DNA of 64,000 bases from Polyangiaceae bacterium (GTDB taxonomy: Bacteria > Myxococcota_A > Polyangia > Polyangiales > Polyangiaceae): positions 75,588-139,587 of the forward strand of contig JADJXL010000022.1 of the NCBI GenBank assembly GCA_016715885.1, written 5' to 3'. Positions 37,760-38,956 of the stretch are shown here, one piece after another. Under the pieces are notes generated by a model. The model was not told where the DNA came from. It ran no database searches and saw only the letters and a program-made list of their open reading frames with translations. How positions within the stretch are numbered: position 1 is the stretch's first letter; each line of letters opens with the position of its first letter. Position numbers and translations under genes: made by a program.

Positions 37760-38956
37760 TTGACCATGACCAAAACATCTCGATTTCTTGGGCTTGTCGG
37801 AGCGGCGATGCTGGCTGCTACGGGTTTTGTCACATCCGATGCGCATGCGTGTGGAGGGTGTTTTCATCAAGAAACGCCGGCCGGTCCCGAAGTGAGCGTC
37901 GTTACTGGTCACCGCATGGCGTTTTCGATTTCGCCGACGCAAACGGTGCTTTGGGATCAGGTCGAATACAGCGGATCGCCGCAAGAGTTTGCCTGGGTAT
38001 TGCCGGTCAAACCTGGCGCGCATCTCGAGCTTGCGAGCGATTCCTTTTTCGAGGTGCTGGATGCGGCCACGACGACGCGTGTGGTGGCTCCTCAATTGAA
38101 TTGCGCGCCGTTCAACGACGGTTTCGATCGAGCGGATTGGGGCGGCGACGAAGGTAGCTCGGGGTGTTGCGGGATCATTGCTTCGTCCGACGCGTCGTTT
38201 GGCGGTGCGGCGGGAGGTGTTTTTGAGGACGGGCCGATGGAGCCGCCGCCACCGCCTCCGGTAACTGTGGTGGATCGTGCGACGGTTGGGCCTTATGAAG
38301 TGGTGGGGGGGGGGGGGGGGGGGGGGGGGGGGGGGGGGGGGGGGGGGGGGGGGGGGACGGTTGCGGGGGGGGCGGGTGGCATTGGGGAGGGCCGTTGGGA
38401 GGCGCAAACTTCCAGCGGGCGTCCATTATGCCGAGCGGCGCAATGCTGGCGCTCGAGGAAGGGCGCGGGCTGTCCCAGCGGGCGCTGCCGACGAACCAAG
38501 GGCCGGTTTTCTACCAATGGGAGACGTGGAGTTCAGTTGCGCCGCAAAGTTCCCGCGAAGGCGGCGGGCCAGGGGGGGGGGGGGGGGGGGGGGGGGGGGC
38601 GGGGGGGGGGGGGGGGGGTGCGGGCGACATCAGCGGGGGGGGGGGGGGGGGGGGGGGGGGGGGGGGGGGGGGGGGGGGGGGGGGGGGGGGGGGGGGGGTG
38701 CGCAAGGCGCTGGAAGGATTTTCGGCCTCATGAAAAGCAGTCGGAAGTCGACAATTGGATCCTGGCGGGGCGAAAAGCGAATGTGCCGTGCGTCGAGGTA
38801 TCCGATGGGGCGGCGCTGCCGCCTGCGGGCCATGATTCGAAGAATGATCGGCGAAAACGTCGCGAAGCCGCGGCCATTCTGCTGGGGCTCTTCGGTCTGG
38901 CATCGGCATTGGCCCGGCGAGCGAAGAGGGCCGTGCCAGCGTATTCGCATTCGTAG
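37760..38956 (+). pseudogene. Disrupted paralogue of the 9284..10672 secreted protein; the middle ~250 codons are replaced by three homopolymeric G tracts
   Basis: N-terminal 175 aa are collinear with the 9284 gene up to VGPYEVV, then run into G-runs. Frame differs after each run. The C-terminal tail RRKRREAAAILLGLFGLASALARRAKR resembles a membrane anchor. Confidence 0.5.
38305..38698. repeat. Three long poly-G homopolymer tracts (38305..38356 about 52 nt; 38572..38618 about 46 nt with one C; 38635..38698 about 64 nt)
   Basis: Read directly. These are orders of magnitude longer than any other homopolymer in the window; the next longest G-runs are 7-9 nt. Confidence 0.9.

Follow-up and report, generated by a model that had tools for sequence, protein, structure and literature searches.

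G homopolymers in genes for surface or secreted proteins are a classic device of phase variation. In the poly-G contingency loci of C. jejuni, each gene has a single tract of ~9 to 12 nt within an otherwise intact open reading frame (ORF), and conservation of the tract extends through the lineage (PMC4202330). Poly-G is also a documented base-calling artefact, described in the fastp paper: in two-colour chemistry a cycle without signal is called as G, and poly-G tails are frequent (PMC6129281). Such tails sit at the 3' ends of reads and replace bases one for one. For long reads and some assemblers, local breaks of continuity ("glitches") and low-complexity junk have been documented (PMC6966772). 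Our own literature search for poly-G in assemblies gave matches that were mostly irrelevant (polygon tools, poly-GA dipeptides, and poly-guluronate).

The DNA analyzed here is a stretch of 64 kb from a Polyangiaceae bacterium (referred to as the window), which contains three G runs, all of them G on the + strand. Run 1 (38305-38356) consists of 52 G; run 2 (38572-38618) consists of 28 G (38572-38599), one C, and 18 G (38601-38618); and run 3 (38635-38698) consists of 64 G. Tracts of about 52, 46, and 64 G at 38305-38698 had been reported in the original prediction, and our reading of the window bears out both their positions and their lengths. Apart from these three, homopolymers in the window reach 8 nt at most, and the maximum over 124 kb from 18 related loci is 7 nt. 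Chance can be excluded as their source, since the counts expected in 64 kb at 31% G are ~2e-10 for runs of at least 28 G and ~1e-28 for runs of at least 64 G. We know of no G tracts of 50 to 64 nt in bacterial chromosomes, where they would be highly unstable. We regard the ~436 nt at 38305-38740 that contain the runs as a local junk consensus lying over an intact, ordinary DUF2330 gene of ~530 amino acids (aa) in a Polyangiaceae-like chromosome, a reading to which we assign a probability of roughly 90%.

The affected gene is a damaged DUF2330 gene on the + strand (37766..38956), with its start at ATG 37766 or TTG 37760 and an open frame of 396 to 398 aa that passes through the junk. The longer form corresponds to the ORF 37760..38956 (398 aa) of the original prediction, which is present as stated. 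Its N-terminal part (37766..38304, + strand) is intact over 180 codons, comprising a signal-peptide-like start, a CGGC motif, and the first part of DUF2330 up to VGPYEVV, and is 74% identical at the amino acid level to the related locus L003. The C-terminal part (38741..38956, + strand) is likewise intact, with 71 codons and the stop (EVDNWI..RKANVPC.., a hydrophobic anchor, and an Arg-rich tail); it lies in the frame of the N-terminal part and shares 55 to 68% aa identity with L003 and L006. Against the Pfam model PF10092, the damaged copy scores 20.9 bits, below the gathering threshold of 24.7 bits, and matches profile positions 24 to 123 only. The N-terminal half is clearly homologous, and the window copy is a damaged DUF2330 member rather than a non-member. 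A search of NCBIfam found no family name for the protein family of the damaged gene.

A second DUF2330 gene of the window (9284..10672, + strand) is intact, with 462 aa and a PF10092 score of 122.5 bits over profile positions 4 to 272. The original prediction had described the N terminus of the damaged gene as collinear with this paralogue up to VGPYEVV, and the two indeed align in this way, with 41% identity over 166 aligned positions.

Related loci were collected by pattern scans of GTDB genomes and JGI metagenomes, which yielded five syntenic orthologues (L003, L004, L005, L006, and L010) from Polyangiaceae/Polyangium metagenome-assembled genomes (MAGs), with 65 to 74% aa identity over the N terminus. 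In all five loci the gene is preceded by the same M23-like gene as in the window (69 to 72% identity) and followed by the same 1284-aa kinase on the opposite strand (77 to 83% identity). Four of the five (L003 to L006) were read and are intact, with 529 to 532 aa; the fifth, L010, has the N terminus and the synteny and is without a long homopolymer. PF10092 scores of 72.9 and 78.7 bits, above the threshold, were obtained for the two orthologues tested. A comparison with syntenic loci had been proposed as a check on the locus; in this comparison, no long homopolymer occurs in any of the five, and the orthologous genes are intact. Nothing closer than 74% aa identity and no assembly of the same species was found by these GTDB and JGI pattern scans or by exact-protein look-ups that covered the damaged ORF, its upstream neighbour, two ORFs at 15099-18058, and RpoC. 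The two ORFs at 15099-18058 are, by eye, DUF58-like and VWA/BatA-like.

In the window, the damaged gene and the convergent kinase gene are separated, stop to stop, by 279 nt (38957-39235), against ~11 to 120 nt in L003, L004, and L006, and this spacer holds a run of 8 G (39185-39192). Several long contigs (P0018, P0081, P0109, P0063, and P0021) gave short DUF2330 hits, which were considered as possible further cases of the same defect. In L001 (4001-5682) and L002 (4001-5439), direct reading revealed apparent single-base frameshifts and no long G runs, and in L015 to L018, covered by gene calls and a homopolymer scan, the genes are split or short and no homopolymer exceeds 7 nt. Four of these loci (L001, L002, L015, and L016) sit on long-read-looking long contigs with names of the contig_N style and have DUF2330 split into two overlapping or adjacent calls; their defects resemble everyday errors of a consensus rather than poly-G.

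A nucleotide alignment with MAFFT took in four of the orthologues (L003 to L006). Each of them has 838 nt where the window has 436 nt, a net loss of 402 nt, or 134 codons. The aligned segments have identical lengths in the four orthologues, namely, 212, 388, 64, 15, 110, and 49 nt, and the corresponding lengths in the window are 53, 214, 48, 15, 65, and 41 nt. Run 1 stands in for ~211 to 212 nt of the orthologue (aa ~183 to 252), run 2 for ~63 to 64 nt, and run 3 for ~109 to 110 nt. At none of the three run sites do the aligned orthologues L003 to L006 have a G seed, even a short one.

Between and after the runs lie recognizable pieces of the gene. The stretch between runs 1 and 2 (38357..38571, + strand; 215 nt, 42% G) corresponds to orthologue aa ~253 to 382 (388 nt), with 9 gaps of 1 to 48 nt in the MAFFT alignment and with hops between frames. 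Runs 2 and 3 are separated by 16 nt (38619..38634, + strand) encoding (A)GDIS, for which comparison by eye suggested the orthologue GQIDS; MAFFT places this remnant ~4 codons further on, at orthologue aa ~403 to 408, and it is too short for statistics of its own, its order agreeing with that of the other remnants. After run 3 follow 42 nt (38699..38740, + strand; RKALE..DF.P.EKQ) with an out-of-frame gap of 8 nt, which form the right edge of the defect. In order, the recognizable remnants are MVAAGTG-like, IGEGRWEAQ, NF..A, MLALEEGR, P.TYQ-like, GDVEFSCAAKF, GDIS, and RKALE. The 215-nt stretch matches the central region of the orthologues with z scores of 16.6, 7.0, and 9.5 over shuffles, and its reverse complement scores at background. 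On this alignment evidence, the inter-run DNA is a collinear remnant of the homologous gene, on the same strand and in the correct order. A foreign or inverted origin of this DNA was considered as well and was rejected; translation in all six frames, a tblastn comparison with the paralogue, and the control with the reverse complement gave nothing above background.

Altogether, the stretches between and after the runs contain at least 11 gaps of 1 to 48 nt, mostly out of frame, and the out-of-frame gap lengths of the remnants themselves include 1, 5, 7, 8, 17, 26, and 46 nt. This picture departs from the original prediction in two respects. The middle of the gene had been described as missing, with a loss of about 250 codons; it is instead present as compressed and scrambled remnants, and 134 codons are lost relative to the orthologues. 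The reading frame had been said to differ after each run; in fact, the sequence resumes in the N-terminal frame after run 1, changes frame repeatedly within the inter-run stretch, and is back in the N-terminal frame over the C-terminal 72 codons. That a single 398-aa ORF stays open across all of this is due to the net loss of 402 nt being a multiple of 3 and to the G-rich DNA being without stop codons; the odds of an arbitrary net loss being a multiple of 3 are one in three.

The known poly-G loci of C. jejuni share with the window a G homopolymer within the coding sequence for a protein of the secreted or surface type. The original prediction had offered, as its alternative, a slipped-strand contingency locus or a G-quadruplex, into which any long G tract can formally fold. 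This alternative failed in every test that was run, on length, frame, and conservation alike. Contingency tracts of a length that can slip reversibly, ~7 to 20 nt, would be expected, and the window has runs of 52, 28+18, and 64 nt; against the one tract of ~9 to 12 nt per gene in C. jejuni (PMC4202330), it has three runs of 47 to 64 nt with the ORF between them destroyed. A change of 1 to 2 nt should toggle an otherwise intact ORF, but here no tract length restores the frame, given that the remnants have out-of-frame gaps of their own and that ~400 nt (402 nt) are gone. Finally, a tract or its seed should recur in orthologues or strains, and neither the paralogue nor any of the syntenic orthologues, including the aligned L003 to L006, has the tracts. 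A phase-variation locus or a regulatory G-quadruplex element is thus barely conceivable here.

The damage is confined to the central stretch, with sharp boundaries at 38304/38305 and ~38740. Outside 38305-38740, every indel relative to the orthologues has a length divisible by 3 (gaps of 15, 3, 6, and 3 nt; insertions of 3 and 3 nt). Inside it, the alignment has 13 gaps of 1 to 128 nt, almost all of them out of frame. The disabling events are all located within the central 52% of the gene, a clustering that under a uniform process has a p value of ~2e-4. The substitutions behave in a similar manner. Flank mismatches against the orthologues amount to 0.43 to 0.53 at third codon positions and to 0.07 to 0.18 at first and second positions, and such third-position-weighted divergence is, as far as substitution patterns go, the signature of purifying selection. 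In the remnants, mismatches against L003 are flat over the three codon positions (0.33/0.36/0.37), which indicates an apparent ~25% of extra codon-blind noise, part of that being alignment uncertainty.

These patterns bear on the idea that the locus is a physically real DUF2330 pseudogene, recently destroyed by deletions and by the expansion of three G tracts. Bacterial pseudogenes do decay by deletion, and an intact paralogue exists in the window, so the loss of this copy might be tolerated. However, a decaying gene should carry lesions or relaxed constraint over its whole length, and here all lesions sit in the central 436 nt, with 755 nt of flanks that are free of frameshifts and retain the purifying-selection pattern. 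An old pseudogene is disfavoured because a dozen or more deletions and 25% extra substitutions do not fit with pristine flanks, and ~25% of extra codon-blind mismatch is too much for a decay that left these flanks untouched. The tracts also have no ancestral G seeds from which to expand, and the related loci have no homopolymer longer than 7 nt. We therefore consider such a pseudogene very unlikely, and it is equally hard to believe that the chromosome itself contains G tracts of 47 to 64 nt within a DUF2330 paralogue that was wrecked only recently. If it did, these tracts would, to our knowledge, exceed in length any homopolymer so far reported from a bacterial chromosome. They would also imply a novel process by which coding DNA gives way to G tracts and the surroundings are scrambled, such as template-independent synthesis during repair, extreme slippage, or instability driven by G-quadruplexes.

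Away from the defect, the window consists of uninterrupted long genes, including rpoB (158-2440, + strand; the C-terminal 760 aa lie within the window), rpoC (2447-6778, + strand; 1443 aa), and ORFs of 1004 to 1329 codons. The uninterrupted rpoB and rpoC mark the window as chromosomal and, outside the defect, as a sequence of good quality. A survey of the window for other frameshifts, as a trace of long reads, found none. The ORF overlap at 17120-17123, which was considered as a candidate, is a normal ATGA junction, and position 2441 belongs to the rpoB stop before rpoC.

The comparative evidence thus favours the reading that had been preferred in the original prediction, namely, a sequencing or assembly artefact: the orthologues are intact and without seeds, and both the out-of-frame gaps and the codon-blind noise are confined to the patch. 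The specific source proposed there, two-colour chemistry, fares less well. In its pure form, this explanation falls within the artefact reading rather than competing with it, and holds that dark cycles of a NextSeq or NovaSeq instrument were called as G and built into the contig. The window does resemble such poly-G (PMC6129281) in having long G runs with occasional other bases and no biological counterpart; the runs are broken by single C or T bases, the neighbouring sequence is enriched in G, and all runs are G on the + strand, as would be expected of G in read orientation. As a dark-cycle signature, we also looked at changes of any other base to G, which make up 16/41 in the remnants versus 13/45 in the flanks, a mild excess that does not decide the matter; A>G is the most frequent change at orthologue-invariant columns.

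Dark-cycle tails alone nevertheless fail to account for the compression, the deletions, and the single strand. Dark cycles swap bases one for one and should leave substitutions only, with no indels nearby, but here 838 nt have become 436 nt, with ~212, 64, and 110 nt replaced by 53, 48, and 65 nt, 9 gaps in the 215-nt stretch, and at least 11 internal gaps overall. Tails from both strands should yield runs of C as well as of G, whereas all three runs are G, on one strand. Unlike 3' read tails, the runs are internal, are shorter than the DNA they replace, and are accompanied by many small deletions. By our own reasoning, in a bidirected de Bruijn graph the nodes that stem from poly-G tails would be dead ends and should terminate contigs instead of lying within them, and the 436-nt stretch exceeds a typical short read of 150 nt. 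For these reasons, we consider a purely two-colour origin improbable.

Another technical route would be that scaffold gaps or masked N positions were recoded as G by a software step. In some 2-bit encodings N becomes one fixed base, and related MAG scaffolds contain N gaps, as seen in L004, whose scaffold holds a gap of 100 N. Recoding does not explain, however, the C inside run 2, and the pieces between the runs are as short as 16 nt, far below the size of a contig, and are themselves full of deletions. The run lengths of 52, 47, and 64 nt are also unconventional as gap sizes. Taken together, we find N recoding highly implausible.

Returning to a junk consensus over an intact gene, the features of the patch suggest what kind of reads may have produced it. 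One read or a few indel-prone reads of a single strand would be the source, because the runs are shorter than the DNA they replace, deletions are numerous, only one strand is represented, and the patch is longer than a 150-nt read. We suppose that one or very few such low-quality reads ended up as the consensus and that the patch may then have been beyond correction by polishing. Candidate origins include a "glitch" or junk segment from a long read, a patched gap, and a flow or signal failure calling G. As expected of a local glitch or junk segment, the window has a sharply bounded stretch with broken continuity, codon-blind errors, and clean flanks. With read glitches and low-complexity junk (PMC6966772), the window shares the sharp local break, the deletion-led errors, the low complexity, the single strand, and the clean flanks; it differs in its poly-G form, which none of the sources found describes for such glitches. 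Two points weigh against the artefact reading as a whole: no single known artefact mechanism among those named predicts all the features together, and a junk patch in a very clean contig needs a special history, for example, a gap patched by one read.

Long G or C runs are not restricted to this record. A scan of IMG/VR returned at least 120 contigs with G/C runs of at least 45 nt, among them 18 with runs well inside the fetched stretch and 25 with several runs. Such contigs (e.g., L102, L069, and L131) resemble the window in having clustered long G/C homopolymers with short spacers in otherwise normal-looking sequence, but differ from it in that most of the runs lie at the ends of the fetched loci. 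Clusters were noted in L102 (3080-3245), L069 (4444-4531), L131, L123 (4464-4776), and L126 (2401-2516), with homopolymers of up to 148 nt, and L102 resembles the present case in that several runs are parted by short scraps. L123 and L126 are extremely GC-rich virus-like DNA, in which the tracts might be genuine. The IMG/VR runs are by themselves no proof of artefact, since part of them may be real, as might be the case in GC-rich eukaryotic viruses.

The real organism probably carries a normal DUF2330 gene of ~530 aa at this position. As biology, the finding is most likely unimportant, and its value is that of a quality-control flag on the record: the junk patch yields a false "protein" of 398 aa with poly-Gly stretches and hides ~134 codons of the real gene. 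Patches of this kind slip past gene callers because G-rich DNA is without stop codons, and they can contaminate protein databases. On the - strand, the G runs mechanically give rise to poly-Pro ORFs (38175-38426, 38293-38517, 38511-38909, and 38630-39139) that could be miscalled as genes.

Elsewhere in the window, the ORF at 14490-15071 (+ strand) encodes a Cys-rich protein of 193 aa with two similar halves, each with the pattern C..C..C...C.ANDP.CPN.CAQM....DY.AL..C..CQEC, and has the appearance of a small, secreted Cys-rich protein that was duplicated in tandem. The large ORF downstream of the damaged gene (39236-43090, - strand; ~1285 to 1290 aa) has, by eye, a kinase-like N terminus followed by a long repeat-like region, and shares 77 to 83% identity with its positional counterparts in the orthologous loci. 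A second large ORF of similar size (22855-26724, + strand; ~1285 to 1290 aa) may be its paralogue.
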